Of a DNA stretch of 64,000 nt, positions 6,001 to 30,000 are shown piece by piece. The stretch is from Syntrophales bacterium (lineage in GTDB: Bacteria; Desulfobacterota; Syntrophia; Syntrophales; UBA2210): assembly GCA_963666365.2 (NCBI GenBank), contig CAXXNF010000002.1, forward strand, positions 32,001 through 96,000. Direction: 5' to 3'. Within the stretch, counting starts at the first letter, position 1, and every line of letters starts with the position of its first letter. Position numbers and translations under genes: made by a program. The notes beneath the pieces are model-generated. The model was not told where the DNA came from. It did not search any database and saw nothing but the letters and a program-made list of their open reading frames with translations.

Positions 6001-9000
6001 GAGGTCCCGGCGAAGACCAGCTCTACGGCGGCGGCGGGAACGATACGCTGTGGGGCGGGGCGGATTCCGACTGGCTGGAAGGCCAGAACGGGATCGACAC
6101 GTTATATGGCGGCGGGTGGATCGACACCATGGTCATGGATGTCCGTGACACCTATAATGTCTTCGGCGACAATATAAACGGACACTACGGTAACCAGCGG
6201 AAGGGCGACGTCTACGACGACAACGCGACGGATATTCTGCTGATCGAGGCTTCCGACTTCGACGACGAGATCTGGATTTCCGAGGAGACGGTTCTCCTGA
6301 GCGACAATCCCTACGCCGTGAAGGAAGCGAATTTCGGTTTCGAACAGACCTTCGATCTGACACTCAAGGCGAGCGCCACGGCCGCTCTGGTGACGGTGAA
6401 CCTGACCATTTCCAGCAACGGCAACCTTGACACCCTTGTGAGCAGATTCAACGACGCCTTCGAGAGCTCACCTCAGTTGACCGGCAAGGTCGAGGCGGTC
6501 AAACGCGGTTATACCATCGCCATACTGACACGAGGAATGGGCCGGGCGGCAACGCTTACCATCGCCCACTTTACCGCAAAGGGCGATAACGGTCTTGCCG
6601 ACCTCGGGTTCAGCGACGGTCAGGAGAGCGTTGGTCAGATGGTGGTGGACTACACAGGCTATTCCGGATACGAAGAGAAGGTGGTTCACCGGGTGCTCCT
6701 AGGCGGATGGCGCGGTGACGACGGGAAGCCCATGGTGGAGCAGTTCAGAATATCCGGTCTGGGAGGCGATGACAGGATCGGCTTTGTCGAAGGGACCAAC
6801 GCCCTTGATGCCTCCGCCCTGAGTGCGCGCAGTCGAGACTGGGTCGGCGTGATCGACGGTGGTCCCGGCAATGATATCCTGAGCGGCAGCAGCGCCCGCG
6901 ACCGTATCGACGGCGGCTTCGGCTCCGACACCATCTACGGGTACGGTGGCGACGACCAGCTCTGGGGTGACGGCGGTCCCGGAATGGGTCTGCCCGACGA
7001 CGTGGACCGCATCTACGCCGGCCAGGGAAACGACGACGTGCTGGGCGGCCAGGGGCGCAATTACCTCTATGCATGGTCCAAAGATCCCAATATCGGCGGC
7101 ATCAATGACACCGCCGTGACGGAACTGCACTTCCGGGACGGCAGCCGAAGCGAAGGTGACCGTCTTTACGGCAGGTGAGGACAGGGTCCGGATTGAGGCA
7201 ACCGCCGACGCCCCGGTGACAGGACAGCTTTCCGCCGACGCCCACTTCAGTCTGCTCATCGGCGAAGGGACGCTGCCGATCAATGTGACCGTGACGAAGT
7301 ACGCCACCAGCGACAATCTGACCATATCCCATCTGCTGGACGACATCGAAGCGGCCATCGCGGAGGCGACCTTCGACGACGGTTCCGACGCGCACCTGGA
7401 CGAGAAGGTCACGGTGAGCCGTTCCGGCAACGTGATCACCCTGACGACGAAGGGGACGCTGCTGACGGTGATTCCCGGATCGGGCGATCCGGCGCGCACC
7501 GAACTCGATTTCGAAATTCGGAACCGATTTGCGGTGACGAGTCTGATCGACTCTCAAGACGCCGTTTGAGATTCTCTATGCCCTGGATGCACCGGCCGAG
7601 CTTCAAGCTGATCTACGAGCCGGATGATGCCAATCTCTTGACCGACCTGCACTGGATCAACGCCGCGCTGCCGGTCATGCTCAATAACGGCGCGGTCACC
7701 ATACGTGGTCTATGTATCCGCCGAGGCCACCCAGGACAACACCGAGCATCGCGGACCTGGTGGCCGACATCAACGCCGCCCTGGCAGCATACGGCCTCGC
7801 CGACCGGGTGATCGCCGGGCTCCGCCGCGGTGGACGATCGACATGGTGTGCAGAAGACCGTTCTCCACCCTGGCCTCCCGGATCGTCTCGATCAAGGTGG
7901 TCAGCCACTTCGGGGTGTACGTGGATCCTGCGATACCGGCGCCCTGCGCGACAACGACGGCGGCGGGATTTACTCAGGAAGAGGACACCGGGTCTCAACC
8001 GCATTCTCGGCGGTCCCATGGGGATGACGATCTTTACGGCGGCACCGGGCTCGACTTCCTTTACGGCCGGGACGGGAACAACACCCTCTGGCGGGCGGAC
8101 GGCACCTCCTTCGATACCCTCGACGGCGGGCTCGCCGGTGATGCCTGGAAAGAATATGCCAAAGCGAATCCGACAAGGTCTGGTACTACCGGGGGACCAA
8201 CGCAGACGATGTGATCTCGGTCGATTTCGTCACCGAGCCGGGCGTGCTTTGGCCGGACAGCATCTGATCACGCGCCTGACCAACAACAACGGCAACTACA
8301 CCTTCGATGCCGCGGTGAAGCTGAGTTTAAACGCCACCAACGCTGCGGGCGAGTTGATCTGGAACACCAACGACAGCCTGCCGGCCGATGACGATTACCT
8401 GGTCATCATCATCGATTGTCATGAACGGCGACGACAGTGGTGACCATCGGTCCCACGGTGCAAAAGACCGTCTGGACCGACGGCGGATACGGCGACGACC
8501 GTGGTGGAGACCATGTCCGGAATCGCCATTCTTCCGGACAAAACCGAAGGCACCACGCGCAACGATACCATTGAGACGGCTTACAATCTGGGTCGGGCCT
8601 GGCTGATGGCCTCCGATTATCCGGCGGACGATGAGCGCTTCTCCCTGAGCACCACTTGCCGACGGCGCCGATCCGGCCTTCAGCAATCTTTGTCAACGGG
8701 AATGTGGACCCGGTGCCAGTCATGGTCGACCGGCACCGCATGACAACCAGACCGTCTGCCGATTTGATCGCGGATCTCAACCGGGCGACTGAAAACCGCG
8801 GGCCTGGACAGCGATCTGGTGGCGGTGAGCCTGGGCGGCCGGGTCGCCATCGGGCCCACCGCTGTCGAGTTCAGCGTGACGGGCGCTCCAGATCGGCGCC
8901 TACGAAGACCAGCGTCACCACGGTCGAGGAGCTTGGTTTTACGGCCGACGCGGTGATCGGCCTGGCCGTACTCAAGGCCGGCGGCCGACCCGCGGTGAGT

Positions 9001-12000
9001 CTGGCGGCCGAATCGGCCGCTGCACGGCCACGGCGATTGCCGATGCCGACGGTACCTTCATTCTCACCATCGACGGCACGGCCTACCCGGTCACAGTGGT
9101 AACCGGAACCGCCGGCAACACCACCCGGCAGAACCTGGTGGACGACCTCAACGCCGCCGTTTACGGCTGCCCTTCCTGGACGGACTGGTGGTGGCGCAGT
9201 CGAAACACGCCCAGGGAAAAATCGAATTCAAACCGGCCAGATGGCGTGGACGATCGACAGCATCGCGGTGGACGGTTCGCACGAAGTCGTAACCAAGGTC
9301 GGGTTTGCGGCTCAGCAGTCGGCCCATTACACGCGTTTGACCGACGGATTCGGTCTTCCGGGTGAGCGTCAACGGCGACGGACCTATGTCCAGGTGACGG
9401 TCGCGGCGGACAGTACTGCGGACAACCAGAGCCTTGCCGATCTGGCGGCCGACTATCAATACGCTGCCTTCGCGGCGGCGGATCGGTCGATCACCTGATC
9501 CGCGCCATGGTGAGCGGCGGGGTCAATTTGGTTTATCACGGTGGAAGGCGGCTCGCGGGCTTCCATCGCCCTGGATGCGGGAGAAGGCGACCCGTTGGTG
9601 CAAAAGATCGGGTTTGTCCGTTGACGGGATCCGCCGGATCGGCCCTGCTCCTCAACCAGAACCTGACCCTAGAAAACCTCACCATCGACAATGCCGACGA
9701 TGTCGATTGGTACAGTTTCATCCTGTCGCCCGATCCCCGGGGCCGAACGCTGAAATAAAACTCAGCAGCGCCTCCGATCTTGACGGACTCGGCCTGGCCC
9801 TGTTCCCGGCCGACGGCGGCGGACAGCTGATAGAGGAAGACAAGATCGACATCGGCGGCGGAAACGAGACGGCCGAAACGGCCTATCTGATCGAGAACAT
9901 CGCCGATGTGGCGGCCGTCACCGGCCTGAGCATCTATACGGCTGAGGATATAGACTGGTTCAAATTCACCATGAAGGACAACGGAACGGCTTCCGATACC
10001 TTTGAGCTGGAAAAGACCCGCGGCGACGGGATCATTACCATTCAGCTCTTTGCGGCTGACGGACCACCCCGCTATATAAAATAGACGGCACAACGCTACT
10101 TGTGGGCACAACCTCCACGGACGATCATGTGGTGCTCGATCTCGATTCATTGACCGCCGGTGCGGAGGGGACGGATTACCTGGTGAAGATCACCGCCGAC
10201 GCACAGGCCGCCTACAGTCTCTATCCCCACATCGGCGACGCCGGCGAAACCGTGATCGATCTGAGCCGATCCGCCGTGCTGTCCATCAATCCGGACCGCG
10301 TGGACATGGAAGGGGGCAACGAGACCGCCGCCGATGCCTACCGGATCGCCGATATCGAGGGCATCAGCAAGATCTACGGTCTGACCATCGATACCACCGC
10401 CGATGTGGACTGGTTCGTTTTCACGATGGGTGAGGACGGCACCAAGGCCGATACATTCAGCCTGCTGCGCACCAACAGCGAAAGCGCAATAATTACCTTC
10501 AGCCTCTACGATGCCGACGGCAACAGGCTGCTGACCTCCGGTGGCGACGTGGTGACCATCGACGGTGGGGCCTATCCGGCTTCAGCTTATAAGTATACAG
10601 GAAAGACCAGCGCCACCGAAGCCTACGTAAAACTGAGTCTGGAAGGGCTTGCCAAGGGCGACTATACGATAGAAGTGACCGCCGACGAGCCGACCTATTA
10701 TGAACTGTACCCGAATATCGGGGCAAAGGGTTACACGCTGAAAGACCTTGCCGGCAAGTCGTCCAGCGGCATCAGCCTGTCCACCCTTGAGGCGGGCACG
10801 GCCTATATGCTGCGGGTGACCTCGCCCAACCTGGTGCCCACCATCTATGATCTGGAGTTTGTACTGACCGCCGGCGAGGATGCCAATGTACAGGATATGG
10901 CGCAGCGCACCGATGCGGTCCGCAAGGACGTGATCATGGGCGGCCCGGGCAATGACGTGCTCATGGGCGGCATGGGTGAAGACTGGATCTTCGGCGGTCC
11001 GGGCAATGACGTGCTCTGCGGCGGTTTCGACCGCCAGGCGCCTGATCTGCTCTTCGGCGAGGACGGCAACGACACCTTCCAGCTCATTCCCGATGCGCTG
11101 CCGCTTATGGAAGGGTCCGATCAGACCTACGTGCCCACCTTCGTGGATACCATGTACGGCGGCGACGGCGTGGACAGGGTGCTCTTCCTGGGCGGCGACA
11201 CCGACAATCTGGGACTGGACGTGCCCGACTATGTGTCCCTGCGCTACAACAGGATACTGCACCGCTACGAGCTGACCGCCCTTGTCTGGGATAAGGCCAA
11301 TCAGGAATTCATGACCGAGGTGGTGCCCGGTGCCGTGATCGTGGCCAAGGATGCGCCCAAGGAATCGGCCGGCGGATCGTCGGCCTATGACGGGCGGCTC
11401 GCCGAGGATATCATCTTCGATATAATTCTCGATAACGTGACCTATACCGTAACCGTGCCGCACGCCCTGGGCGACGGCATCGTGACGGCGGCAAACGCAC
11501 CGCAGATAGCGGCAAATAATATTACGGCGGTCAATTTGCCGACCTTTGCAAGCGAGGACTACACCGAGACCTTCACGGTCCAGGTAAACGACACCAGTCC
11601 CGTCGGCATAGGGGTCTATACGAGCCAGATCAGCACAATTGCCCAGATGGTAACCGCTCTGAACGATGCCATCGCATCGACGAGCCTTAATGGGAAGATT
11701 TCCGCCGCCGCCGTATCAACCACCGATGGAAGGCTGAAGATAACGGTAATAGATTCAAATGACATCGTGGTCATCTCCGACGGCAATTCGGACGGCGACT
11801 TGAGCTATTTCGGTTTCGAGTTCAACGGTCTGCAGGTGGCGATTGGCGATCACTCACCGGTCCAGGTGAACGTCAACGGTCTTACCAACGACATTGAAGC
11901 GCTGGCGGGGCTGGTCAACGAGGCGATCCGTTCGACGACGCTGACCGGCAAGGTGACGATGACCAAGGATGCCGGGGGCACGAAACTGGTGCTTCAGCCC

Positions 12001-15000
12001 GTCGGCATCCTTGACGGCACTGCGATCGAGATGGTCGAGGCGTCCGGCGAGACCAATCTTGCCTTCTTCGGCTTTACTGACGGCCAGAGCGCCCAAGTGA
12101 ACAATTCCGTGGCCGATCTGGCTAAGGACATTGTCGAGGCACTGCGCACGGCCGACAAGAGTGGTACGACCGAAGACATCAGCGACCGGATCAACGTGGG
12201 CGCCTCCGGCGGGCGGCTCATTATACAGACCTCAGAGATTGCGAAAGATTCAACGCTCAAGGTGTCCGGTGCCGGCGAAACCACACTCGGCTTTACTGCT
12301 GACCAGCTTCCCGAACCCCAGAAGGTGATCTACACCCAGACCTACATCTTCTATCAAACCCACCAGGTGGAGCAGACGGTAATCGACGTACAGGGCGGCG
12401 ATGATGTGGTGCGGGGCGATGCGGGCTTTACCTTCCCCAACGTGGAAAGTGAGTGGGGAATCGATCCGGGCGACGTGGAACAGAACGGTGAAATTTCCCG
12501 CCTGATTATCTACGGCGGCGACGGCAACGATCATCTCTATGGCGGTGCATACGACGACGAAATTTACGGCGGCGACGGCATCGACTTTATCGCCGGCGGC
12601 GGCGGTTCGGACTATCTGGACGGCGGCCCCGGACAAGATCTGCTTGCAGGCGATACCACCACGGCGCCCGACGACTATGAACTGGTGGAGAGGATCGGCG
12701 AAGTGGCGACCAACGACCAACCGGCCTACGCCGCCGTGCTGCCTGCCATCACCCGGGGCCTCGAAATCGACGGATTGACTCTCCATGAGGGGGATGCGGC
12801 CGACTGGTATCTGATCGAGACGCCCGATGCCCTCAGGAGCTTCGGTTCCGCCCACGCGGCCCAGCTCATAATGGACATGATCTCCGTGGTCTTTGACGAG
12901 CCGAATATGCAGGCGCTCTATGACAGCTTCCCGCTGACGGGGAGCTACCTCTTTGCGGCAGGCAATGTGGGCTCCAGTGGAGAGCTGGAAATCGTGCCGG
13001 TTGAAAAATATTCCGGCGTGCCTGACTACTATGTGCTCAAGATCGAAAACGTGCGCTCCTTCAGCGTGACGGCGATCAATGCGGTGGTGACCCTGGGACG
13101 TCTCAGCGCCGATGCGACATTCAACATCAGTATCGACGGCGGCGATCCGGTGGCAGTGACCGTATCGAAGGCATCTACCGATGCCAATGTGGATATCGAC
13201 AATCTTATCGCGGATGTAAATACCGCTCTGACCGGTGCAGGATTAAGTGCAACCGTAAAGGCGGAAAAAGTGTCCATTGCCACGGGCTTCCGCATCAGCC
13301 TGACCGGCGCCTACGGCATGACCATTGAAATAAGTTACGCCGATGACAACGCCGCCTCCGAACTGGGTTTTGTCAGCGGACAGAGCAACTCCGGCCGTGC
13401 ACCGGCCATGGGCCGCTACAAGCTGGTGTTCTCAAAAGAACTGCTCGGGACAGCCATCGATGTGGCAGGTGCCGACGCCGACGTGCAGATTTCCATCGGA
13501 GACCCCTCGTACCGTCCGGCGGCGATACCACTTGGCGACATCAATGGTGACGGTTACGACGATTACATTGCCGCCGTGAAAGACAACCTCACTGGCAGCG
13601 GTTTCAGCTATGCCCGCGTGGTCTTCGGTTCGGCGGCCGGCACCGACTTTGCCCTTGAAGCGGCCGGGGGATTTATCCTCAAACTGACGGCGCCGGTACT
13701 CTATCCGACCTCCACCACCCAGGCGCAGTCTTTCTTTGCAAAACCGGGCGATTATAACGGCGACGGAAAAGATGACATCATTGTCAGTGTCACCACCCCC
13801 ACCGGCGCCACAGTGACCGGGCTCGAACAGGCCGTCTATCTCATCTTCGGGGCCGTTACCTGGGCTGATGAGTTCGATGTGTACGGTCAGGCGGACGTGC
13901 GGATCGTCGGCACCGCCGGTGCAGGCGCCCTGCGCGGATCGAGCGCCGGCAACGTAAACGGCGATGCCTATGGTGATTTCCTCGTGACCCAGGGGAGCAG
14001 CGCCTATCTGTTCTATGGAAAGGCAAAGGCCATTTGGGAAACGGAAACAGGCGAACTTCTGAACGAAGACTTCACCAGTGGTTTAGGTGGATTTTCACGA
14101 GATACCATCGATGCTGCAAACCTGTGGCACCTCACCGTTCTGCGGTCCGGCGATCCCAACCACTCTGCGGGGCAGAGCCTCTACTACGGACTTGACAGCA
14201 CCCAGACCTACAACTACATCGACAGCGTCAGCGGACTGCCCGAACAGACCCTCGGGACCGTTACGTCAGCGGAGACAAGTCTTTCCGGGTACACCACGGC
14301 CACGCTGTCATTTAAATACTACCTGGAAACAGAAGGGCGGCCGGAGAGTTATGACCAGGTCAAGGTTGTTGTGCTGAGTACCTCTGACAACTGGGATACC
14401 CAAACCGTGACCATCGTCGCCTCCAACGACTCCGCCCTGGCCGACACGGTGCTCTCCGATCCCAGTTCCGCCTGGAAGTCGGCCAGTGTCGACCTCACCG
14501 ACTTCGCCGGAAAGAAGATCAAAATCCGTTTTGCCTTCGACTCCATTGATGAGGTGGAAAACCAGTACGAAGGCTGGTATGTGGATGATGTGCGGATCGT
14601 GGCGCCCACGTCCGTCTCCGGTGCAAACGCCACGTTCACTGTTGCTGCAGGGTTTGTGTCCGCCGCCGGCATCGGCGACTACAACGGCGACGGCTTTGAT
14701 GATCTCGCCTTCCTGAATGCGGCAGGTAATGTGTATCTATACTATGGTGCAACAGGCGCCACTCCCTTCGCGGGTCCCATCGCCGTGCCGGCCTCCGACC
14801 CCGACCTGACCCTCGCCACCGGCATTGTGGGGACACTGACCCCGCTGGGTAATGTGAACGGTGATGTCAGCGGCGATTATGCGATTGATGACTTCGTGGT
14901 AAACGGTGCGGGTATGTCCTGGATCGTCCTGGGCGGCATGGGCCTCGATGCTGATCTGAAAATAATTTCCACCCGCTACTTTATCAATGTCGGCGACATC

Positions 15001-18000
15001 GACGGAGACGGTAAGGATGACCTGGGCGCCCTGGCTCTTGAATCGAGCCCGGGACTGCTCCAGAACGGATCGGTGGTGACTCATGCCGTGGGCCAGGTCT
15101 TCCTCGGCAGGGATTCGGATTCCTGGGCAGCCGCCTGCTTCACCTGCCCCGATCTGGTCTTCGAGCTTGACCAGCCGTCCTATCAGGATGCGGGCGGCGC
15201 CACCATTCCGCAGCATTACTTCGCCGGTGTAGGTGATATCAATAATGATGGCAAGAACGACCTGGCCGCGGCAGAAACGCTGAGTACCCAGGTCCACCTG
15301 AGTTACGGCACGGCCCTTACACGTTACAGTGCGCCTGCACAGCCCGAGACGGACAAGCCGCTGCCGAAAGTATATGTGTACGAACTGGCGAAGCCGAACA
15401 TGGGCGGGACCGGTTCCACGGCCCATACCGGTATCGATGTATCAAACGATACGATCACCGATTTCACAATGCATGATGCCTTTGCTATTGAAGGAAGCGC
15501 CATTGGACAGCAACTCTCCTCGGCCCAGGCCATCGGTGATTTCGACGGAGACGGCAGCGACGACTTCATGGTGAGCGGTACGTTGGCAAGCTATATCTTC
15601 CTCGGTCCCATGGACCTCACCGGGCTTTCGAATGTAAACATCGCCGCCGATTTCATAATCGATGCCGCCTCACTGGGCACACCGGCCGACGCCATGGGCG
15701 ATGTCAACGCCGACGGAAAGACCGATCTGGCCTTTGTGCGCCATGACGATGCAGGCAACAGGACCGTCGTAACCGTGATTTTCGGCGGGCGCGTCATGCC
15801 CAGGACCATCGACGCGTCCTCCCTGGAGGCGCTCTACGCCCGGACCATCGAATTGGAGGATACGCTGCTCGAGGAGACGGGCGAAATTACCGTCATGATC
15901 GGGAACTGGAGCGGCCATGTGGATGTCCAGACCGGGCGCTTCTTCAACGATCTGCTGGTGGTCTCCTCGCTGCCGGGCGCCACCAACAGCTACGGCTATG
16001 TCTTCGCCGGCGATACGATCAAGGCCCGGACCACTACCATGGGCACCGGCGATGCCCTGGTGGACCTGAAACTCTTCACCACTACGGTGAATGTGGCCGA
16101 CGACCGTGTACCGGTGCGGACGCCCGACCTGGATACCCTGGAATCGACCACGAAGGTTACGATTGCGCCGGTGCATACGGTCATCGGTACAGCAGGCGCC
16201 ATTACCGACGCTGGGCAGAACACCTACGAGATCAATCAATCTGTGTCACATGCAGTAGGTAACGGTCTTACGGGACAATACTACGACGGCATCAATCTTG
16301 ACCAGACGATAAGTTATACCTGGTCGAATTACAGCGATTACGGGATTTACGACTATCAGACGACGTACTCTCATATTTATGTCGGGAACAGCGGCCTTAC
16401 AAATCTCAGTGTAAGCTGGCAGATTTACCACACCTATATCGGAGACCTGCGAATTACCGTGATCGCACCGAACGGTACAGAATATGTGGTGCATAATCGC
16501 AGCGGCGGGAATACCCGTGCTAATCCATGGTATCTGGTGAGCAACGTGGGGATCGGTACGCCAGGTACTACGGCCGGATGGTGGACCTTCAAGGTGGAAG
16601 ACCTTGCCGGAAGTGATCAGGGGTGGATTGACGGATGGCAGATTCACGGAACCGTGGGAGGAAGTTCGGCTCTAACCGGGACCGCGAGCACCGTCAATTT
16701 CGGCGACACACAGCCCGTGACGGGGCAAATGGAAACATACTCCAGCCGCTGGACGGGCTATGTGTCGGCGCTGGCTTCAGGCTACTATCAGTTCCGCACC
16801 TATAGCGATGACGGGGTGAGATTATATTTGAACGACGGCCTGGTCATCAATAACTGGACCGATCACGGCGGCACGTACGATTATTCCGGCAGTTATTACC
16901 TGACTACCGGAACCTATTATTCAATAAAGATGGAGCACTATCAAAATTACGGCGGCGCGGTGGCACGTCTGGAATGGAACGGTCCGGGCACCAACGGGTG
17001 GCAGGTGGTGCCCGAGCAGGCGCTGTTCACGGCAAATACGGGAGGAACACCCAAGTACATTACCGACTCCAACATCACCGTCTCCACCATCAATGTGAAC
17101 GCGGCCACTGCGGGCGCCGCCTACCCGATAGCGAGTGTAGAAGCGACTGTTAACCTGAAACATACCTACATCGGCGACCTGGTCATCTCGCTGGTATCGC
17201 CTGAGGGGAACACCGTCATTCTGCACAACCGCAGTGGTGGAAGTACGGATGATATTAATGGAACCTATACCGTCGGCACTGTTCCCGGTCTTGGGATTCT
17301 TCAGGGTGCGCGCGCCGATGGAAACTGGCAGCTGAAGATTGAGGACAAGGCCGGTGGCGATCAGGGTTGGCTGGCGCAATGGTCCCTGAAGATTGCTACG
17401 TACCAGGATATCGCAGAGAGCACTCCCTACAGCGCAAGCGCAACCGGAATTTCAGGAAATATTACCGACGTCAACGTGCGCATTACTCTGGATCACCCCA
17501 ATCTGTCGGAGCTGAAAATAGAATTGAAGCATGTGGTGTCGAATAGAACAATCACCCTTTTCGACCGGAACGATCTTTCAGGGGCCGATTTGCTGGGTAC
17601 GGTCTTCGATGCGGGGGCTTCAAGTGACATTTGGAACGGAACGGCCTCTTACACGGGAACATTTCTCCCACGGGGCAGCCTTGATTTCTTTGACGGACAA
17701 AGTCCCAACAGCGAGTGGCAGCTTATCATTACAGATTACGTACACAGTACCGCATCAGGGGCTCTCGTCAGCTGGTACCTGGATGTGCGCACTGATGAAA
17801 TAATTGCCTCGACGATTACGGTCTCCGGACTTTCGAAGGACAACGATGATGTGACGCTCACCGACGTGAACCTGTGGCTCAATATTTCCCATGCTTCGTC
17901 CGACAATGCTTTAAATATCTGGCTGGTGAGTCCCGGCGGGACGGAAGTGCAGCTTTGCGACAGTACAGAGGTGACGGGAAGAAGTCTCTCCGGTGAAGTC

Positions 18001-21000
18001 TTTGACGATGAGGCGGGCGATTCCGTCCTGAACGGGTTCTTTACGGCAGCGCACTCTGATTCGGAGGGCAACCTCAACGGGACCTGGACGCTCAAGATCC
18101 AGGATACCACCGGCAATGTCTCCGGCACCCTGAACGGTTGGACCCTCTATTTGGGGACCTCGCCGACGGTGTCGCAGATCGAAGTCGCCGGTCTTCCCGA
18201 CGGGCTGCGCGATCTTGACGTCACGGTGACCCTGGGCGACGATCCCGCTAATGGCTATGATTTCAATCTGGACGACTACTCGCTGGTGGTGCGCAAACTC
18301 AATACCGACGGCACGGTGCTGATCAGTAAAGCGCTCTTTAACCAGGGTACGCTGACAGGCAGCGCCCTGGGCAATGTGGTGCTGGGGACCACCTTCGACG
18401 ACGAGGCGGCCATCGATATCGGCGCAGGCGACGCGCCCTACACCTCTTCTTACAAGCCGGTTTCGTACACTGAGGATGGGAGCGGGGAACAGGTGGACGG
18501 TTTGATCGCCTTCGACGGCATCGATCCCAACGGTATCTGGGAACTCGTGCTCACCGACCACGAGGGAAAGACGGTAGGAAGGATCGAGGACTGGTCGCTC
18601 ACCTTCTCCTTCGAGCCGGAAGATGCCGATGCCCTGTCGGTTGTAGTGGGCGGCGACATCAGCGGGAACGGTCTCGACGATCTCGTCATCGGCGTGACTT
18701 CATTCAATACGGCGCCGAACGACGAACCCGATCCACGCATCGGCTGGGCCTATGTGCTGGGCGGCAGGCTCAGCGCCGCCAATACCGGCAAGGGAACCGT
18801 GACGAACGGCAACGACCTTGCCGACGAGACGGTGATCGCCTCCGCCTGGACGGCCCTGGGTTCCGATTTCATGAATGCCCGCGCGGTCTTCAATCTTGCC
18901 GGCGGCAACAACAATCTCTGGTTCGAGGCCCTCGATGCGGATGCCACTGCCAACGACATCCTGATCAAACTGGTCATGGATACGGATCTGACCACCGACC
19001 CGGCCAAGGCCTCGTACCATATCGGAACGAGGGTACTCACCATCACGGTTCGAAATCGCTTCACCACGGCAAACGACGTGATCAACGCGGTGCAGAATGA
19101 TACCGAGGCGGCTGGTTTCCGTGAGATCTTCCGCATCGCCCTCACCGCCGAGAGCGTGGTCAATGTGACGGACCACGCCGGATTCCGGGTGTCCGACACG
19201 AGCCTTGGCGCCGGGGTATACGCCCTTGGCGACCTGAACCGCGACGGATACGACGATTTCGCCGTAAGCCGCACCCGGGAAGACGGAGGATCGGCACTGG
19301 GGGGCCTGCTTGTGTTCTATGGCGAGGCGAGCTATGGCGAAGGGCCGGTCTCCGCCCTCGATGCCTCCACCATGACCGATATCATCATTCAGCAGGCCAC
19401 TGCCGACGAGTTGGGTGCCACCAGCCTGGTCGGTTCGCTCCAGGCCACTGCGGGTGACATCAACGGTGACGGCGTACAGGATTTGATTGTCGGCCAGCCG
19501 CAGGTCATCCGGATAAGCTCCGTCTCCGATGAATACAGTGTAAACGAAATCCTTAACCGCAACGAACGGGGCAGCGTCTATGTCTTCAAGTCGATTTCCA
19601 CGCGAAGCATTCAGCTCACCCTTGCCGAAGCCGATCTCATCATGGACGGCGAGGGCGAGTACGATCATTTCGGCTATCTGGCGCTTACGCCGAATATCGA
19701 TCTGGACGGCGACCGCATCGACGATCTTCTGATCGGCGCGCCCACCCTGGACGGCATTCTTGGCGGCGTAAAACAGGATGCAGGCCAGATCTACCTCATC
19801 TACGGCAACTACCGCACCGCCGTGATGCCCGTGACCGGTTACGGTATTCTCACCAACCGGACCATCACCGGCAGCGGCAGCTTCCTGGTCGATACGGGCA
19901 TCGGCCGCCCCGACCGGTTCTACGATCCCGATCTGGACGGCGATGGAGTCCTGGATGCCACCCGCTATACCATCGTGACCGGCGAAGGGCAGAAGTGGTA
20001 CCGCTTCACCACCCTCGGCGATGGATATCTCGGCACCATGATCCGCCTTACCCCTGCGGCCTCTGCGGGCATGACCGTACGGCTTTCAGGATATGACGGC
20101 GTGATTGCCGGCGGCCTCGTCGATCCCGACGGAACCGTGGAGAACGACGAATTCCTGGTAGGACCGGCGGTGGACACGGAGGAGACTTCCTTTACGGTTA
20201 AATTCGTCGGTGGTGCTGCCCAGGGCAGCGAGAGTGCCTCCTATGACACAGACACCGATACGCTGACCGTCACAATCGAAAGCGGCGTGTCAACCGCAAA
20301 CGACATTATTAAGGCCATCAACGCCACAACCATGGCCGGCGCTTCCTTCCGTGCAGTCCTGGCGGGTACGGACAACAGTGGAGAAGGAACGGTCTCCGAC
20401 GGGAACCACAGCGTGAAACTGAACGTGGTGCTTGCCGGCGACGGGCTGGAAATGGCCTCGGGAACGGCCGCGATTCTCGAATTCGACCTGAGCGCCTACC
20501 TGGCCTATATGGACGATCCGGAAGTGCTGGCACAGGTGGCTCTGCTTCTTTCGGGGCTTTCAGGTACTGCGGTGACCCTCCCCTCGCCGGTGTCGAATCT
20601 GACCGTGGTGGACGAGGACTCTCTCTTCTTTACCACCGTTGACACGAACGGGATCTACCAGCTCTGGGAGAGCGACGGAACGGCCGGCGGCACGCGGCAG
20701 GTTGCCGAGCTTACCGGTACGCCGGGCAGCCTGATGGATGTGGCCGGAACGCTCTATTTTACCCTGGAAGAGGGGCTGGTAAGCACCAACCTGGGTACCG
20801 ACAATCCCGATCAGCTTTGGAAGGTGCAGGCGGGCGAACCGCGCATCGTCTTCGTGGATGATTTCGATGCCACGCCCGATGCTGTAATTGCGGCGGGAAC
20901 CAAGATATTCCTGAATGTAAACGACAAAATCCGTGTCGTCGATACCGACGGTAACGGTGCCTGGGTCACCTTCGGAGGATCGGCAATTGAAGGTGTCACC

Positions 21001-24000
21001 GAGATGGCTGAAGTTGGCGGAACCCTCTATTTCATCGGCGATTATCTCGATCAAAAGACACTCTTCTCCACTACTGGCGGAACGGCGAGCCTGGTGGCCG
21101 AGACGGAATCGCTCTACGGGACGAGCGGTGCCTTTGTGGCGACCGTGGACGGCGCCGAGCGCATCTATTTCACCGCGCCCTATGAGGGGTACAACGTCCT
21201 CTGGTACACCGCGGGCGGCGCTGCCCAGGTGATCAGAGATTCCGGCGACGCCACCCTGAGAGCCCCCGCCAATTTCACGATCTTCAAGGGGATACTGCTG
21301 CTTTCCGCAGACAATGGTGTGTCGGGGAACGATCTCTGGAGAAGCGCCGATGGCGTGAACTTTACGCTGGTCAACAGCGGAGCCGGCATCAACTCCGGCG
21401 GGGCCGCAAATCCGCGGAACCTGTTCGTCTACCGGAACGGGACGGACACGACCGACGATGATCTGCTCTATCTGAGTGCCAAGGGAAGTGATGCCGCGGG
21501 GTCCGAGCTGTGGAAGAGTGCGAACGGCGCGACCTTTGCGCAGGTTAAGAACATCAATGCGACCAGCAAGGGATCATCCAGCCCGAACAACTTTGCAGAG
21601 TTCGGCGGAAAGGTCTATTTCGCGGCCGACGATGGATCAAGCGGCTTCGAACTATGGGTGACGGACGGTTCGGCGGCGAACACGAGCCGCATTCGTGATA
21701 TTAATCCCGGGTCAGCGTCCTCATCGCCGAGAGGCCTTATCGTATACGACGGTGTGCTCTATTTCTCTGCCGATGATGGCACCCACGGGAGAGAGTTGTG
21801 GACAAGCGACGGGACGGAAGGCGGCACCGTCATTTACAAGGACATTCGTGACGGCGAAAAGAGCTCCGATGTGGGGAACTTCATACTCTTCAACAATGGG
21901 ACCACTGACACCGAGGATGATGTGCTGTACTTTACCGCCGACGACGGTGTCCACGGGAATGAACTCTGGTTCATGACTTCCGGTACGGCCGGCGCCGACA
22001 TAACCCCGCCGGGGAGCAACAACGATATGACCCTTACCAGCTCCGATAAGGAAGGCGGCGTGAGCGTGGTGTTTGCCCATGGTGATGTGACCATGGGTGC
22101 CTGGACCATTGCCGCCTCCACCGTGACCACTGTCGATCCTGACGGCGATGACAACGGGATCAGACTGACCGAGAGCGGCGGTGATGCAAAGAGTCTCGTG
22201 TTGATTCATGCAGACGGGCAGGACGGTGATTCGGCGACAGCCTTCTGGCTTGCGACAGATAAGATTATCAAAGTGGAGATCAACAGCGGTGTGACTAGGG
22301 CCGGGACCATTATCACTGCAATTAACACCGTTTCAGGGGACAGTGATGTGACGGCGGCAAATGCCACTGGCAGCGACGGCTCGGGTATCGTGGGAACCGG
22401 CAGGGAAGCGTCTGCATCATGGTCTTCAACCAGCCGAACCATCACGGTGACCATCAAGGCGGGCGTTACCACCGCTGACGATGTGATTGCCGCCGTCAAT
22501 GCGCGTACCGGAGAGACCTCCATCACGGCAAGCCTCAACAGTTCTGTGGAAACAGGTAACGACGGCTCGGGAACCATCAATACCGAACCGGTTACCACCG
22601 CGGGCGGCGTGGACGGCGCCGGCCCCACCTGGACGCTGAGTCTGCCCGGCGCCGACAATGATATTCTCATTACCGGAGATACCACCACCGACTACAGCGG
22701 GTTTGCGGTGAATGTGGTCGAGGATAGCGATCCAGGTACGAATTTCACCGAGTTCTTCGCAAAGGCCTCATGGAACAGCGATACCAGTCTGCTTACCATC
22801 TCCATCGCCACAGGCCAGACTACGCGGAACGACATTATGGGGGCGGTGGGCACCTCCCTGCGTCCCAATGCGGCCATTCCCCTGACGGCCTCGGCCGCGG
22901 CGGGAGAGCCCGACAATAACGGCATAGTGGGGATCACGGCTATCACCAGCGGCAGCAGCGACGGCGCTTTGTCCGCCGTGGTGATCAATCCGGAAGGGGA
23001 TCTCAATGCGGTAAGCGTGACCGCAGTCAACCCGGGCAGCGGCTACGACGACCTGCGGGTCCTATACGTGGACGATGGTTCCGTCAGCGACGGCACGCCC
23101 GTTGCGGTCTATGACAGCGTCAATAACGTATTGACTGTCACGATTCAGAGCGGCGTGACTACGGCACAGCAGGTCATTAACGCGATCAACGCCGTGACGA
23201 CTGATTACACAGGAACGACTGCCGACTTCAATACGCTTTTCCAGGCCGCCGTGAACGGAGCCGGGACAGTGACCTTTACCACACCCACCCATGTGACCAC
23301 GGGGGGGAGCAGTGGGAAGTCCTCTGTCACGATCAGTTCCACTGGCGGCAATAATGATGTGACCATCGAGGCGGATTCTGCAGGGGTGGCTTACGACGGA
23401 CTAAGGGTGTTGTTCTACGATGACGGCACCTACGCCGGCAACGAGGCCTCGGCGATCTATGATGCGGGTGCGAAGATTCTGATGGTCCTTATAAACAATG
23501 GTTCTACCACGGCGATCAAAGTTGTAGAGGCAATCAACGAAATTGCGGGACTCAATTATACCGCTACATACGGGGGAAACGGTGGTGGGTATGTGCAGGT
23601 GACGACCCCGGCCGACCGTACCGCCGGAGGCGTCGACGGGTCCGCGAAGGCCTTTGTGGAGGTCGATGTCGCCGGTGATGACAATGTGGTGAGAATCGAG
23701 GCCCTGGCGAACGGCAGCGCCGCCAATAACGCGGGGATCATTTTCATAGACGATGTTTCGGTTACGGGCAACGATGCCACGGTCCGCTGGAACGCAGACG
23801 ATCATATATTAATCGTGAAGATTGAAAAGGACGTCACCACGGCCCAGACGGTCATCGACACCGTCAACAACTACGTGAGTGAAGATATGGATGCCTTCCG
23901 GACGGTGTATGCCGCCTCCGGGCCTGTGACTGCCGGCGGTACGGTCGCGGCGCCCATAGCGGTGACCGGCGGCGGCAACGACGGCACGGCGGCGAGCGGA

Positions 24001-27000
24001 TCCTTCACTGTGCGGGATGATGCCATCACGGTCACGGCGGCCAACCTGGGGACGGCCTACAATAATGTGCAGGTGCTGCTTGTCGCCGGTGACACGGAAG
24101 GGGCTGTTTACAACAGCGACAACAAGCGCATCACGGTCACGATCGATAAAAACGGAACCACCACCACTGCAGATATTGCAACGCTCATTCATGGTTTGGC
24201 CGATTTTAACGCCTCAGGTGGCGATACGACGAAAGTATTTACGCCGACCTTTACCGATGTGACCGGAGAAACCGGTGTGGACGGCGTGACCGGAGTGGCT
24301 GCAAGCGCGACCTTTACCGTGGCCGGAAATACTATTGACGTCACCGCCGATGCAACCGGGGCAGAGTGGAGTGTCAGCAAATTGGTGCTAACCTCCGGCG
24401 GATCGCTGGGGGCGCCGAGTTTTGACGACGCCACCGACACGATCACCCTGCAGATCGTTGCGGCAACTACGACGACCCTGCAGGTGGCCAGCGCCATCCA
24501 TGACATGGGCGATTTCAACGTTGACACGCTTCCGGAGGACGGCACCCTCGCTGTTGCAGGTACTTTCAACGGCACGGGCGTGGTCACCGGTGTCACGGCG
24601 GTTACGGCCGTTGCGGCAAGCGGTACCTTCACGATTCAGGGCGGAACGACGGCGATTACCGTGACAGCGGCCACAGCCGGCACCGCATACAATGACGTGG
24701 ATGTGCTACTCGTGGCGGATGTGAACGCCGGCAGTGAAAGCGCAGGGTATGTCCACGCCGCCGGCGCCGGTGTAATCACCGTCCATGTAGCAAAGGACGG
24801 TTCGACGACGGCAACGATCATAAAGAATAAAATTAATGGCTTGACTGATTTCAACGCTACCGGCGGAGATACAAAGAATATCTTTACCGACACCTATGCC
24901 GACGCCACCGGGTCGAACGGCGTCGATACGGCGCCCTCCGCGGCCGATCTGGATTTGAATCCCGATCCCGCTGTTGATGCGGTCATTACGGTCACCGCCA
25001 AGGCGGACGGCACGGCCAATGACGGCGTCCTTATTTACGTCATCGATAACGGGAGCATCGCAGACGGGACCGCTGCGACACAGTGGGACAGCGTAAACGA
25101 AAAATTGAAGATTACCGTTCAATCCGGGGCGACCACAATTGGTACGGTACTAACCGTCATCAATAACACGACCGGCTTCAAAGATCTCTTTGAAGCGTCC
25201 TCAACGGACAGTGGGACAATCATTGTTCCCAGCGGTCTTACCGACGGCGGTGAAACGGCGACAGCTTCAAAGGTCACGCTCACTCTGGACGGAAGCAATA
25301 ACGATCTGCTCGTCACTGCCGCGCAGGGTGGTACGGACTACGACAATGTCACGGTGAAGCTGATAGACGATGGCACTATCACAGGCACCAGCACCACGGC
25401 AGCGGCGAGCTACAACAGCGCGGACAAGGTATTGACCATCAACATCAACAGCGGCTACACCACCGCCGGGGCCATTGTAACTGCTTTGGGAGACGGGAGC
25501 AGCACCAAATTCACCGCCGCGCCTACGGGCAGTGACGGCGATACAACCGGCGCCGTGTCGTTGTCGCGCGTGACCAATCCTACCGGCGCCTCCGGTGGAG
25601 GAAAGGCCTCCGCCACCGTTGCTCTGGCGGGGACGACCACGTCAATCAGCGTTACGGCGGAAAATAACGGTGCCGCCTACTCCGGTGTGCGCATACGATT
25701 CGTTGACAGTGTGCTCGAAATCGGTCAGGAAACAGCCGTCTACAATGACATCGCCAGTGAAATTGTAGTCAGCATCAAGGCCGGCGCCACTACTGCAGCT
25801 CGGGTCATTGAGGTTATCGATGCGCTTGCCGACTGGAACGCGGTACTGGCTTCGGGCAGTTCCGGGGCGAAAATCGACACCGCGGCAGTGAAAACCGTCG
25901 GGACCTATGGCATGGCGGCGGACATCAACAGTTCGGGGAGCGCCAGTCCGTCGCATCTGACCATGTATGAAGGAAAAGTGTATTTCACCGCCAGCGACGG
26001 AACCAACGGCATCGAGTTGTGGGCGGTCAATCCCGTCGGCAATGGGGTTGCCATGGTGGCCGATATCAATGTCTCCGGCAGTGCTGTCCCCCAATACCTG
26101 ACGGTATTTGCCGATGATTCAGATAAGGAATGGCTCTATTTTGCCGCCGGCAACGGCACCGTGAAAGGGCTGTGGCGGACCGACGGAACCGATACTGCCC
26201 AGGTCGGCGCATTTGTCACACCATCCACCCTTGCGGCAGGCAGCGACAGACTTGCCGTAATTTCCCGGGATGGTTCCAACAATGTGCTGACCCTCATTGC
26301 AACGGATGGGAGTACCCAGGGCGTGGGCAAGCAGGCGCCCGTAACGGATGCTTCCAATCTAACCGGCTGGGAGTACGCCGTCGATCAGCACGCACTGGTC
26401 TATGTGGTCGACAATGGTGCAACCTATTCGCTGCAGACGACGGCCTCGACCAGCGCGATCGTGACCGGCAGCGCGTCGATTATCGACAACCTGACCGGCG
26501 TGGGCGGCAACCTCTTCTTTACCGTAGGCGGGAAATCCCTCTATGTGTCCGTCGAAGGCGCCGCGGCGGTCAAAGTGGAGGAATATCCCTATCTGCTTGA
26601 GAATCTGACTGCAGTAGGCGATACCCTATTCTTCGTGTACGATTCCGGAACGACCGATGTGCTCCACGCATTCACCTACGCGTCCGATGCCACACCCGTG
26701 TCGGTCAAGCGCCTCTCCGGTGATGCCTCTTTGATGATCAATGTGAACGGCACGCTCTTCTTTAAACTGGGAAGTGACCGCGGCACAAGCCTGTGGCAGA
26801 GCGACGGCACACAGTCGGGTACGGTGCAGGTGAGCTCTGTCTCGGACGGTTTCACATCAACCGTGCCGAATCCCGCCAATATGGTGGTTCTTTCCGGCTC
26901 GCTTTACTTTACGTCGACCGACTGGAACGGAGAGGCAGTACTGTGGAAGAGCGAGTACGACGGAGAGACGTCAATCTGGACCACGGGCCGCCTGGAAACA

Positions 27001-30000
27001 TTCGGCGGCGTGCCGCTGCCCAGCATCACAGTGGAAGTGCTGGCAGCGGAAGGCGACGGGATGATCACCGCCTCCGATTTCGCGGCGCCGGCCCTTGCTG
27101 CCTATACCACTAAATCGAACCAGAATTTCCTGGATCTTACCATGGTGGTGCGCGAATTCCTGGCCTCCGGAAAGACCTGGCTTACGCTGCGCCTCCAGAG
27201 CGAATCGGCGATTACCCTGCGAAGGGCGTGGCTGGCCGACGACAGTGCCACCGGCCTGATCGTCGAGACGGTGGAGCGGACCGGGGTGGTGGCCGATCTC
27301 TACACCTATGAGGGGCGTCTGCTTGTCCAGGGACAGTCGATCGTCGACCTGAGCCGGTTCCCCGCAGGCACCTATTTCCTCAAGGTCTACGATCCGAACA
27401 ACGCGATCGGCACGGAAAAGGTGCTCGACGACCAGGGCCACCAGATCGGCAGTCCCACACTACTGACCGCCGTGGGCGACATGGCCTACTTTGTCCACGA
27501 GACCAAATTGTGGCGCACCAATGGTGTGTCGGTTGCCGAAGTGAAGATCGCCGGAATACCGAATGGCAGCGTGTTCAGTCCTGCCAATCTGATTGGTGTG
27601 GGCGAGACGCTTTTCTTCACGGTTGGCAGCGGTGCAGATACGGAACTGTGGAAAACCGCAGGCGTCTTCGCCGAGAAGGTGGGCGACCTGAGCAATGGCC
27701 CGGCCCATATGACCGCCGTGGGCGACAGTCTGTTCTTCTTTATCGATACGTCCCTCTATGCCAGTGACGATTCGAGCGTCGAATTCGTGAAGACTCTTGC
27801 TGATATTGCCGCCTCTGATATCACCGACCCGGTTGCTTCCGGAGAGGTATTCTTCTTCCAGGTACAGGGCGCCCTCTGGAAGAGCGACGGCACCGCGGAC
27901 GGTACCGCTGCGGTATCCATCGTCGATCCGGGTGTGATCGATTCCCAGGATCTGGTGGCCATGAACGGCTTCCTCTACTATCTGGTCCGCGAGGGATCGG
28001 TGGTGACACTGTGGAAGGCCAGCCCCCTTGAGGGCGAACTGACCGGAGCGGAGCCCCTGAGCATAGCCGCCCTGGCGGCGATCGATGCCACGGCGACCGA
28101 TCTCCTGGGCGTCCTCGACGGTCGTCTGCTCTTCACGGTAACCGATGGTAAGGGTACAGGAACTACTGACGACGATGAAGTCCAGCTCTGGATCACCAAC
28201 GGGAACGGCGACAAGTTCTTCGGCGATGACGTGGACGGCACGTATATGATCAACGCCGACATCGGCGGCAGCGCCGATTACCTGAAGATCGCCGACGGTC
28301 TGCTCCACTTCGCCACGAAGGTGGCCGACAACGTCTTCCAGGTCTGGACCACCGACGGTGCCGAGGCCGGTACCGTCCAGAAGATCGGCGATGCTCCGGG
28401 CGTCATTACCGCGGCGGCTGATCTGCTCCCCGGCAGGATTATGGAAACGGTCGACCTTGGCGGGACCCTGTATCTTCTGACCGAAACCGATACCTATCCG
28501 ATGCTCTGGAAGAGCGACGGCACGAAACTGGAGCTTGTGACCACCCTGTCCGGTGAGGCCTACGGGCTTACCGTGGTGCGTGATACGCTGTATTTCGCAG
28601 TACGGATGGCGGATGCCGTCACTGAAGACAACGATACGCCCGATGACGATTCCGACGACTGGACCCGCGACGGCTACACGCTCTGGAAGAGCGACGGTTC
28701 CGCCGCCGGTACGATCATGGTGAAGAACCTGGGGAATATCAATCCGGGCATCATTGACAATCTCTCGGCAGTGGGGACGCGGCTGATATTCACATGTCTT
28801 AACGTGGATGACGGCACCTATGACTACAGCCTCTGGGTCACCGATGGGACCGGTGTGGGCACGGTGCCCATCGCGAGCGGCTCGGCCGGTACGCTGCCCT
28901 ATGGAACCGCCGCGATCACACCGAAGAATTTTATCACTGTGGGTGAAACCCTGTTCTTTACCTTCCAGGGGGCGCTGTACAAGACCAACGGGACGGAAGA
29001 GAGCACGGAGAAAGTGAAGGAAGGAACCTTTACGCTCCTGACCGATGTCAACGGCACACTCTTCTTCGAGACCGGCGGGGCCCTCTGGCGGTCAACCGGC
29101 ACCCTGGTGGACGTGCCCTTCACCGTAGCGGCCAAGGCGCCCATCGCCGGCGCGAGCCATGCCGCCGCCGACCGTGACGTGATCCACGGCGGCGACGGGG
29201 ACGACATCCTCATCGGCAACGCCGATCACGACCAGCTCTTCGGCGAGAGCGGCGAGGACTTCTTCGTGGCCGAATCGAAGGAGATCAGGGATCTGGCTTC
29301 CTATGAGACCTTCGATCTGCCGCCGGCCGCCGAATTCAGCGTGAATCAGCCGCGATCCAGCGACACGGAAGTGTATATTCCCGACAATGCGCTGCGGGCC
29401 GGCATTGCCCGGGCGCTGGATATCCCCGTGACGACGGACTACCTGGGCCGGCCGCTGGCGCACGAACCGATTTACGCCAGCGCCATGTCCACGCTGACGG
29501 AACTGCAGCTTTTCGGTCTGGGGATCGAAAATCTGACGGGCATCCAGTTTGCGAACAACGTGACCGTGCTGAACCTGAACGACAATCGAATTATGGATCT
29601 CGGCCTGCTCGTGCCGGCCACCGATCCGATCACCGGCGCGCCCACGGGCATGGCCAACCTGGGGATCTTCACCATCGATCACAACGGCGGTGGCGCTCTC
29701 TCCTTCGACGGCGTGGACGACTATGTGGATATCGAGGCCGATGTGTCCGAAATCGAGCTGACGGTCACCTTCTGGTTCAGGTCCGATAGGGGCAACGTCG
29801 GCCTGTTCAGTGCCGATGCGGGCATCCGCGGGTCCGAAGGCCACGATAGGGATATCTATCTCGATGCAGCGGGGCACATGGTCGCGCTGCTCTGGGACGG
29901 CGACTCATCACAGTACGAAGCGCTGATAACCGACGCAGCTTTCGCCGATGGTCAGTGGCACCATGTGGCCTATCTGTACAGCGACAACGGTGCCGGCACA

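Follow-up and report, generated by a model that had tools for sequence, protein, structure and literature searches.

Gene B lies on the forward strand at 10102..32376 of the window, the whole 64,000-nucleotide (nt) stretch of contig CAXXNF010000002.1 from a Syntrophales bacterium that was analysed, and encodes a protein of 7,424 amino acids (aa) in a single uninterrupted open reading frame (ORF). Its product is very probably a giant calcium-repeat surface protein containing a branching unit, in which domains are inserted into one another recursively to a depth of five levels, and the gene holds the entire nested region. The evidence is a composite unit that is contiguous in relatives and was recovered in the gene B product as separated, complementary pieces around three inserts. 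The initial annotation of this DNA had likewise described a branched or tree-like protein rather than beads on a string, a picture that the rejoining of the pieces and the existence of insert-free homologues support at the sequence level. The peptides it quoted at seven coordinate pairs are all present in the frame of gene B, one range (~22110-22400) being two bases off a codon start.

With aa 5638-5775 as the query, a search of 1.84 billion representative proteins returned 162 at E<=1e-3, and the majority of these match the whole stretch in one piece; the other flank pieces are found in the matched proteins as well, at variable spacing. A composite-unit profile of 294 positions (profile positions are written h) was built from seven relatives with a contiguous unit, the gene B product being left out. 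This profile was found to match the gene B product in exactly four colinear, non-overlapping and complementary pieces: aa 3268-3337 (h4-65, domain E 2e-13), aa 3441-3488 (h68-117, 1e-6), aa 5640-5771 (h123-261, 3e-30) and aa 6337-6369 (h262-294, 4e-9). Because these colinear pieces bound them, three inserts are defined, of 103 aa at site 1, 2,151 aa at site 2 and 565 aa at site 3. Since an independent profile matches in four colinear, non-overlapping pieces, the unit is, on this comparison, split in the gene B product beyond chance, and sequence comparison likewise shows where the insertions lie and in what order the domains nest.

The rejoining test that the initial annotation had proposed gave a single domain at this level. 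The four pieces joined in silico were aligned as one over h4-287 with 236.0 bits, against 106.6 bits for the largest piece alone, whereas 20 constructs with random flanks had a mean of 107.7 bits and a maximum of 117.6 bits, above which none of the 20 scored. Joining in the wrong order produced four separate matches, and dropping piece 1, 2 or 4 from the rejoined construct caused a loss of 61, 46 or 36 bits, respectively. Homologues without inserts were also found to have the flanks contiguous, as had been anticipated. All three sites are closed in 19 of 112 module-bearing proteins, and six further proteins carry only the bare outer domain, as described below. In the 681-aa relative P0020, BLASTP aligned three colinear segments to aa 3030-3335, 5641-5765 and 6339-6500. 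The nested unit of gene B is preceded by FG-GAP repeats and followed by RTX/leucine-rich repeats, and this context is common to P0020 and gene B because the BLASTP segments extend into it. The homologue P0002 is colinear with the gene B product (P0001), 54% identical overall, and carries the corresponding inserts. The flanks of the two proteins are 74% (203/273) and 69% (162/235) identical, and the start of the repeat array is 37% identical (105/286). Because the flanks are 69-74% identical against 37-54% elsewhere, the host pieces are, by this measure, under constraint.

The outermost host, level 1, resembles a PPC domain. Its first piece (aa 3268-3337; 19903..20112, all features being on the forward strand) contains KWYRFTTLGDG..IRLTP (aa 3298-3318; 19993-20055). 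The second piece (aa 5724-5771; 27271..27414) begins after the level 2 domain and contains GVVADLY..AGTYFLKVY (aa 5728-5763; 27283-27390), followed by DP. The third piece (aa 6337-6369; 29110..29208) consists of the last strand VPFTVAAKAP (aa 6338-6347; 29113-29142) and the residues leading on to the RTX repeats, the one RTX repeat called by Pfam on aa 3200-6500 lying directly after the nested region. A profile built from 32 Pfam-positive, genuine PPC copies was found to match the gene B product at aa 3287-3328 (h8-50) and aa 5733-5768 (h50-90, E 8e-5), two complementary parts that are 2,405 residues apart. A matching split was seen in P0002 and in the relative L003, and a single whole match in L030 (h17-91, 29.4 bits). 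Conversely, the composite-unit profile was observed to match Pfam-positive PPC domains (P0134, P0151, P0136) in two adjacent pieces, h13-50 and h217-258. Six natural proteins (L030, P0160, P0161, P0164, P0165 and P0168) have the bare PPC in the matching sequence context and lack everything between h46 and h214. The contiguous-unit alignment compared with P0165 by hhalign gave an N-terminal local match only, and Pfam PF04151 matched 8 of 12 contiguous units, with a best E of 6.6e-5. As in PF04151, the motifs follow the order DWY.F.. / ..I.L.. / DLDL.LYD..G / ..AGTYY..V / Y.L.; unlike that family, the gene B pieces lie below the cut-off and are interrupted twice.

Two other PPC-like stretches were noted nearer the N-terminus of the gene B product. 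One is in two complementary pieces about 69 aa apart, aa 86-149 (h2-64; 10357-10548) and aa 219-252 (h65-98; 10756-10857), and is possibly another split PPC, of small size. The other is a third PPC-like start, DWYLIETP, at aa 888-914 (h6-32; 12763-12843); in the stretch that follows, to about aa 1105, a candidate last strand GRYKLVFS was picked out by eye alone past about 110 aa of repeat-like sequence.

The first gap of the PPC-like host had been read as holding a DNRLRE/CBM96-like domain. This reading stands as a resemblance, with curated cut-offs unreached as given below, and it had overlooked an additional NND..TTA unit that occupies site 1 (aa 3338-3440; 20113..20421; NND profile match at aa 3330-3410, h4-85). 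The first level 2 piece (aa 3441-3488; 20422..20565) contains AILEFDLS..VALLLSG (aa 3457-3485). The second (aa 5640-5723; 27019..27270) contains SITVEV..LIVET (aa 5641-5723; 27022-27270) and forms the first part of h123-261, its boundary with the PPC-like host being set where the bare-PPC relatives resume (h214-219). In the contiguous unit of P0079, the NCBIfam model NF033679 (DNRLRE_dom) covers residues 75-204, which correspond to positions 17-148 of 164 (132 positions) and extend across insert site 2, and thus over both level 2 parts. The segment that fills the gap in the contiguous unit has CBM96 as its nearest cluster in a language-model atlas (score 0.90).

The level 2 pieces, at aa 3441-3488 and 5640-5723, were found to flank ELWxxDGT repeats, so that the DNRLRE-like domain encloses propellers, as had been proposed. 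Membership in the NCBIfam family TIGR04534 (ELWxxDGT repeat) is clear, with 309.2 bits (E 2.5e-94) over 12 stretches at a cut-off of 65. A separate repeat profile, with a unit of about 47 aa, identified 26 units: 8 at aa 3497-3964, 6 at 5279-5628 and 12 at 5783-6334. Block 1, at level 3, comprises an N-terminal part (aa 3489-3964; 20566..21993), which ends past blade strand 3 (..ELWFMTSGTAG) and the last of whose 8 repeat matches covers h12-36 only, and a C-terminal part (aa 5267-5639; 25900..27018) with 6 matches, which begins with strand 4. The second block occupies site 3 within the PPC-like host (aa 5772-6336, 565 aa; 27415..29109) and holds the 12 repeats at aa 5783-6334, in agreement with the earlier placement of a second ELWxxDGT block in the second PPC gap. 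In the PDB, the block 1 repeat profile matched designed Kelch-type propellers (8pjr, E 1.5e-9) and KLHL17 (6hrl, E 1.1e-4) over about 65 positions.

Occupancy of the sites was compared over 134 module instances, which are the matched proteins together with the ORFs of 25 loci and include two duplicates. Site 2 holds ELWxxDGT repeats in 62 instances, is closed in 42, holds other sequence in 8 and could not be assigned in 22 truncated ones; the corresponding counts for site 3 are 20, 95, 8 and 11. Site 1 contains an NND unit in gene B, PA14 (above the Pfam cut-off) in L006 and L007, and a domain of about 160 aa that Pfam does not recognise in L014, L015 and L017. Because an NND unit, PA14 or this unrecognised domain occupies that position, site 1 is a plug-in site as well. 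The lengths of site 2, measured after subtracting any NND array, cluster at 388-474 aa (15 sequences), 763-838 aa (8), 839-935 aa (8 with arrays, gene B included) and 1,694 aa (1). This clustering near 1x, 2x and 4x suggests that propeller blocks come in steps of roughly 430 aa. Block 1 of gene B, at about 850 aa, is twice the length of about 430 aa seen in simpler relatives. The propeller inserts, near 430, 800 and 1,700 aa, look as if they were made from blocks of about nine blades.

Within block 1, the level 4 array of NND..TTA units spans aa 3965-5266 (21994..25899), which is 1,302 aa rather than the 1,304 aa first reported as splitting a blade, and consists of a split outer unit, an inner unit and 10 regular units. 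The NND..TTA profile gave 12 matches in aa 3997-5244, namely the 10 regular units, a complete unit (aa 3997-4078) and a C-terminal half (aa 4089-4136), in addition to single units at aa 3330-3410 and 2917-3002. The latter, a lone unit with 74 bits (18850-19107), lies upstream of the FG-GAP repeats and outside any array. No recent tandem repeats were detected in the DNA of the array. Compared with the PDB, the NND unit gave only insignificant matches to OspA, and in the atlas only unnamed clusters.

The split of the blade is seen in the phase of the repeats. The last repeat before the array covers h12-36, and GTYGMAADINSS, the 12 residues preceding the next repeat, reads as positions 37-48. This exit pattern is also present in P0002, P0013, L001, L003, L004 and L005, and the blades split by NND arrays show both the entry and the exit pattern in P0001, P0002, P0013, L001, L003, L004 and L005. 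The rejoined blade was aligned over h3-45 with 43.2 bits, against 36.0 bits alone, a score reached by none of 30 random tails. Block 2 of gene B has an uninterrupted blade at aa 6151-6210 with a 20-residue acidic loop, and the orthologue of this blade in L002, L004 and L005 is cut at that loop by NND arrays of 3-4 units. This comparison of orthologous sequences offers stronger support for an array within a blade than the block 1 rejoining does.

At level 5, a complete inner NND unit (aa 3997-4088; 22090..22365; h1-85) lies between the two halves of the outer unit. The N-half (aa 3965-3996; 21994..22089) scores 12.4 bits alone (h13-43), and the C-half (aa 4089-4140; 22366..22521) matches h32-85 in its native context and h48-85 alone. 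Rejoined, the outer halves gave one alignment over h13-85 with 54.9 bits, against 47.3 bits for the C-half alone and at most 48.6 bits with 30 random partners. The claim that the first NND repeat contains another complete copy thus appears to hold, at nt 22090-22365 instead of ~22110-22400. At the same position in P0002 the matches run h7-50, then h1-87, then h51-84, and because the outer halves are exactly complementary there, a single insertion is indicated. The split blade and the repeat within a repeat have weaker support than the outer levels, from sequence only.

Several results weigh against the five-level reading. PF04151 scores below the Pfam cut-off of 25.9 bits, with 21.3 bits for P0080 and 13.4 bits for the bare PPC of L030, and NF033679 reaches 24.8 bits in P0079 against a cut-off of 34, matching 2 of 12 contiguous units. 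PF24517 (CBM96) matched 1 of 12 contiguous units (E 0.048), below its cut-off of 26 bits, and an NCBIfam scan of nine relatives did not return the DNRLRE matches. Neither PPC nor DNRLRE was called in the gene B product at E<=1, by Pfam on aa 3200-6500 or by NCBIfam; each host piece is too short alone, and therefore the curated libraries saw none of the four. The PPC and DNRLRE labels thus appear right as resemblances, sub-threshold similarities that fail the curated thresholds, and the claim of a PPC-like domain split in three stands on the complementary matches to the genuine-PPC and composite-unit profiles and on alignment along the length with genuine PPC copies, but not at the PF04151 cut-off. 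Searches of the PDB found no solved structure for the contiguous-unit profile (best E 0.46) and nothing for the bare PPC segment, and that the separated pieces pack into single domains is inferred. As to the secretion route, neither the window nor 16 flanking ORFs of four related loci yielded genes for type I secretion, and a type I route is here suggested only by the RTX repeats. At level 4, the gain on rejoining the blade is small, about 7 bits, with a best random tail of 42.8 bits against 43.2, and in L006 and L007 the blades on either side of the block 1 array seem to be complete. A close relative lacking this array was not found, so that the split of the tenth blade lacks an insert-free counterpart; in P0017, a possible array-free counterpart of block 1, the repeats align out of register.

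The small blade gain and the complete blades flanking the array in L006 and L007 would fit an alternative in which levels 1-3 are nested and levels 4-5 are not: the NND array would be a linker between two self-sufficient propellers, and the half-units would be degenerate or truncated. Separate rings would also fit site 2 lengths near 1x, 2x and 4x of about 430 aa. Moreover, the first unit of the array is whole in L003, L005 and L007, the repeat within a repeat being confined to P0001, P0002 and perhaps L004. However, a linker does not account for a unit that ends at position 36 before the array and resumes at 37-48 after it, a continuity shared by the six relatives with the exit pattern, nor for a block 2 blade that is contiguous in gene B and cut by arrays in three others. 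The exactly complementary halves of P0002 (h7-50 and h51-84) would fit one insertion and not two independent deletions. A linker is thus improbable, though it has the best prospects among the alternatives to five-level nesting.

Far less likely is that the pieces complement each other between molecules, by domain swapping among copies or with the neighbouring giant proteins, so as to build a surface mesh. No direct support for swapping was found, although three giant surface-protein genes are adjacent and a single chain with very long inserts would face high kinetic demands in assembling by itself. The neighbouring ORFs A and C are not matched by the PPC profile, and because the unit is in one piece in relatives whose inserts are short or absent, the ancestral state lies within one chain. 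That the protein is a string of beads whose flanking pieces are decayed recombination fragments, no longer folding, is scarcely credible: the curated Pfam and NCBIfam models do miss the pieces in the gene B product, but the pieces are exactly complementary and the best conserved parts between P0001 and P0002, and bins from no fewer than four other phyla share their break points.

Under the five-level reading, the host would be a divergent PPC beta-sandwich, of about 85 aa when insert-free and about 130 aa as matched by the profile in gene B. The loop past its IRLTP strand would take one NND..TTA unit and the DNRLRE/CBM96-like sandwich, and the loop preceding its last strand the 12-repeat ELWxxDGT (Kelch-like) propeller block. 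One loop of the DNRLRE-like sandwich would be opened by the larger propeller block of about 850 aa, the 12-unit NND..TTA array would interrupt one blade of this block, past its third strand and ahead of its fourth, and the first NND unit of the array would be opened by another NND unit. The inserted modules presumably have neighbouring ends, so that a folded insert would pull the host halves together. Because folded inserts would do so, folding would proceed from the inside out. By analogy with the split domains of RTX adhesins, the unit may act as a hub that projects propellers and lectin-like sandwiches sideways from the fibre axis, which would give a tree-like instead of a linear protein. 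A further step would be to regard the PPC and DNRLRE-like unit as a reusable socket, dedicated to accepting modules at three plug-in sites. Close-ended modules, namely NND..TTA units, PA14 and propeller blocks sized in increments of about 430 aa, would be inserted into it and into each other recursively, also into their own copies. The chances of this socket reading are put at slightly below even.

How widely is this architecture distributed? A genome scan yielded 39 loci. The complete architecture, with the order unit, propeller, array, propeller, unit, propeller, unit, was found in bins titled Victivallales (L003), Lentisphaeria (L004), Planctomycetota (L005) and Verrucomicrobiota (L006, L007), and the nearest locus, L001 from a Syntrophus bin, is 81% identical over the module. 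In a module tree of 134 columns, 60 of 127 branches are unresolved, and the rows with the full architecture fall within one group of 17 with a local support of 93. The relatives form a natural series, from a bare PPC to a PPC with the DNRLRE/CBM96-like sandwich, then with ELWxxDGT propellers, and then with NND..TTA arrays in the blades. The composite unit, the NND..TTA unit and the site 1 domain of about 160 aa are present in bins from many phyla. No curated family model accepts any of the three and no significant solved relative was found, the domain of about 160 aa having been compared with Pfam only. Two observations on single relatives may be added. In L006 (aa 2984-3029), L007 (aa 3841-3888) and P0017 (aa 1094-1138), the first NND unit of the block 2 array lacks its N-half (h35-85 only) and comes directly after blade-like strands. 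In L011, an intact-looking relative of 4,106 aa, the ends (L011:7094-7423 and L011:18812-19411) translate to Arg/Pro-rich nonsense, which suggests frameshift errors in a long-read assembly.

Gene B is the middle one of three giant surface-protein genes that lie side by side in the window. ORF A (3-7178) is a giant gene rich in RTX repeats, and ORF C (32753-61669; 9,638 aa) contains cadherin-like repeats. In the second half of ORF C, 7 Cadherin_3 stretches were identified, and its first 5,000 aa have no Pfam match at E<=1e-3. The flank containing an NND unit was observed to match many places in ORF C by BLASTP, and the NND unit is therefore probably present there too. The N-terminal part of the gene B product has library matches to PPC-like, FG-GAP, MAM, PA14 and P-domain families, and RTX nonapeptides occur at several places in the protein. 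Its last 400 aa or so (31177-32376) appear beta-helix-like by eye, with repeated ..ITLTN.AG.L.V.. patterns. The end of ORF B, separated from ORF C by a gap of 376 nt, shows no obvious type I secretion signal, and nothing diagnostic of such a signal was found in the C-terminal 200 aa.

Integrins offer a familiar comparison from textbooks: the beta subunit nests its beta-I domain in a hybrid domain and the latter in a PSI domain, and an alpha-I domain is inserted in the FG-GAP propeller of the alpha subunit. Like gene B, they are extracellular adhesion proteins with three-level nesting and a domain in a propeller; unlike it, they are eukaryotic, have unrelated folds and carry the insert between two blades and not within one.

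The closest known systems are RTX adhesins such as AhLap and FrhA. As far as the available portions of two sources describe them, a domain is interrupted and a ligand-binding domain buds off, to a depth of up to three levels; CBM, vWFA and beta-roll domains can act as hosts, in the order beta-roll, then vWFA, then an insert or CBM-like domain, and the ends of the inserted domains are adjacent (PMC12077191; bioRxiv 10.1101/2025.09.30.679566). In gene B as in these adhesins, the beta-sandwich of a giant calcium-repeat surface protein is interrupted and the emerging domain returns, and a domain interrupted by another and then completed is found in gene B at the level of sequence. On the same partial basis, the two differ in their hosts, which are PPC-like and DNRLRE/CBM96-like sandwiches in gene B and Ig-like extenders in RTX adhesins, and in their inserts: two propeller blocks (565 aa and about 850 aa) and an array of 1,302 aa in gene B, single domains of 17-28 kDa in the adhesins. 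Gene B would further differ in its depth of five and in having a propeller that is also a host, the word 'propeller' being absent from the accessible part of bioRxiv 10.1101/2025.09.30.679566. An RTX adhesin would be expected to have an N-terminal retention module, a long run of Ig-like extenders, and a C-terminal RTX beta-roll and type I signal with a cognate ABC transporter, membrane fusion protein and outer membrane protein; neither a retention module, at which no search was aimed, nor a C-terminal type I signal was identified in gene B. The remark of the initial annotation that a protein secreted unfolded would not usually fold in this way was overstated, split budding domains being a hallmark of RTX adhesins in the consulted parts of both sources (PMC12077191; bioRxiv 10.1101/2025.09.30.679566).

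A deeper precedent is Si3 of the beta' subunit of cyanobacterial RNA polymerase, a nested SBHM described, in the text available, as an A1-B1-C-B2-A2 recursion of six levels, with depths 1-5 in the legend (PMC13114784). Si3 is like gene B in that one fold is inserted into its own copies, as is the NND unit in an NND unit; it is unlike gene B in being cytoplasmic and in having a single fold type throughout. The whole rpoC2 protein modelled there has 1,280 aa, compared with about 2,820 aa for the inserts alone in gene B. According to the same partly available 2026 survey, insertions are mostly single-level and inserts are consistently smaller than their hosts, whereas a host of about 130 aa in gene B carries about 2,820 aa (103, 2,151 and 565) (PMC13114784). 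The founding CBM96 member is described, in the accessible part of its report, as an alginate-binding beta-sandwich and a type B CBM (PMC9971899); a basic and aromatic groove is the expected alginate-binding site of that member. The DNRLRE/CBM96-like domain of gene B is interrupted by propellers, unlike the NF033679 and PF24517 families. In the literature searched, no mention of the ELWxxDGT repeat or of the PPC/DNRLRE composite unit was found, and the words 'inserted', 'nested' and 'discontinuous' are absent from the giant-gene preprint (10.1101/2023.11.21.568195). Gene B thus belongs to a known kind of protein with split and nested domains, and what is new is its folds, its extracellular depth, a blade as host and the ratio of host to insert size.

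What would this architecture mean? If the socket reading is true, no extracellular protein noted so far would be as deeply nested as that of gene B, with inserts about 20-fold the size of the host, and would contradict the rule drawn from structure databases that inserts are smaller than hosts; folding would then have to go inside out. Type I secretion proceeds C-terminus first, as stated in the available part of one source (PMC4648471), and with export in this direction the host sandwich would close only once about 3,000 residues had emerged. For folding, the series of relatives supplies test cases of discontinuous domains across 100 to 2,400 residues. For annotation, linear domain maps fail to show how some giant surface proteins of bacteria are built, and the composite unit, the NND..TTA unit and the site 1 domain of about 160 aa constitute three unannotated module families. 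For evolution, the series from a bare PPC to five levels would be a stepwise record of complexity built by domain insertion.

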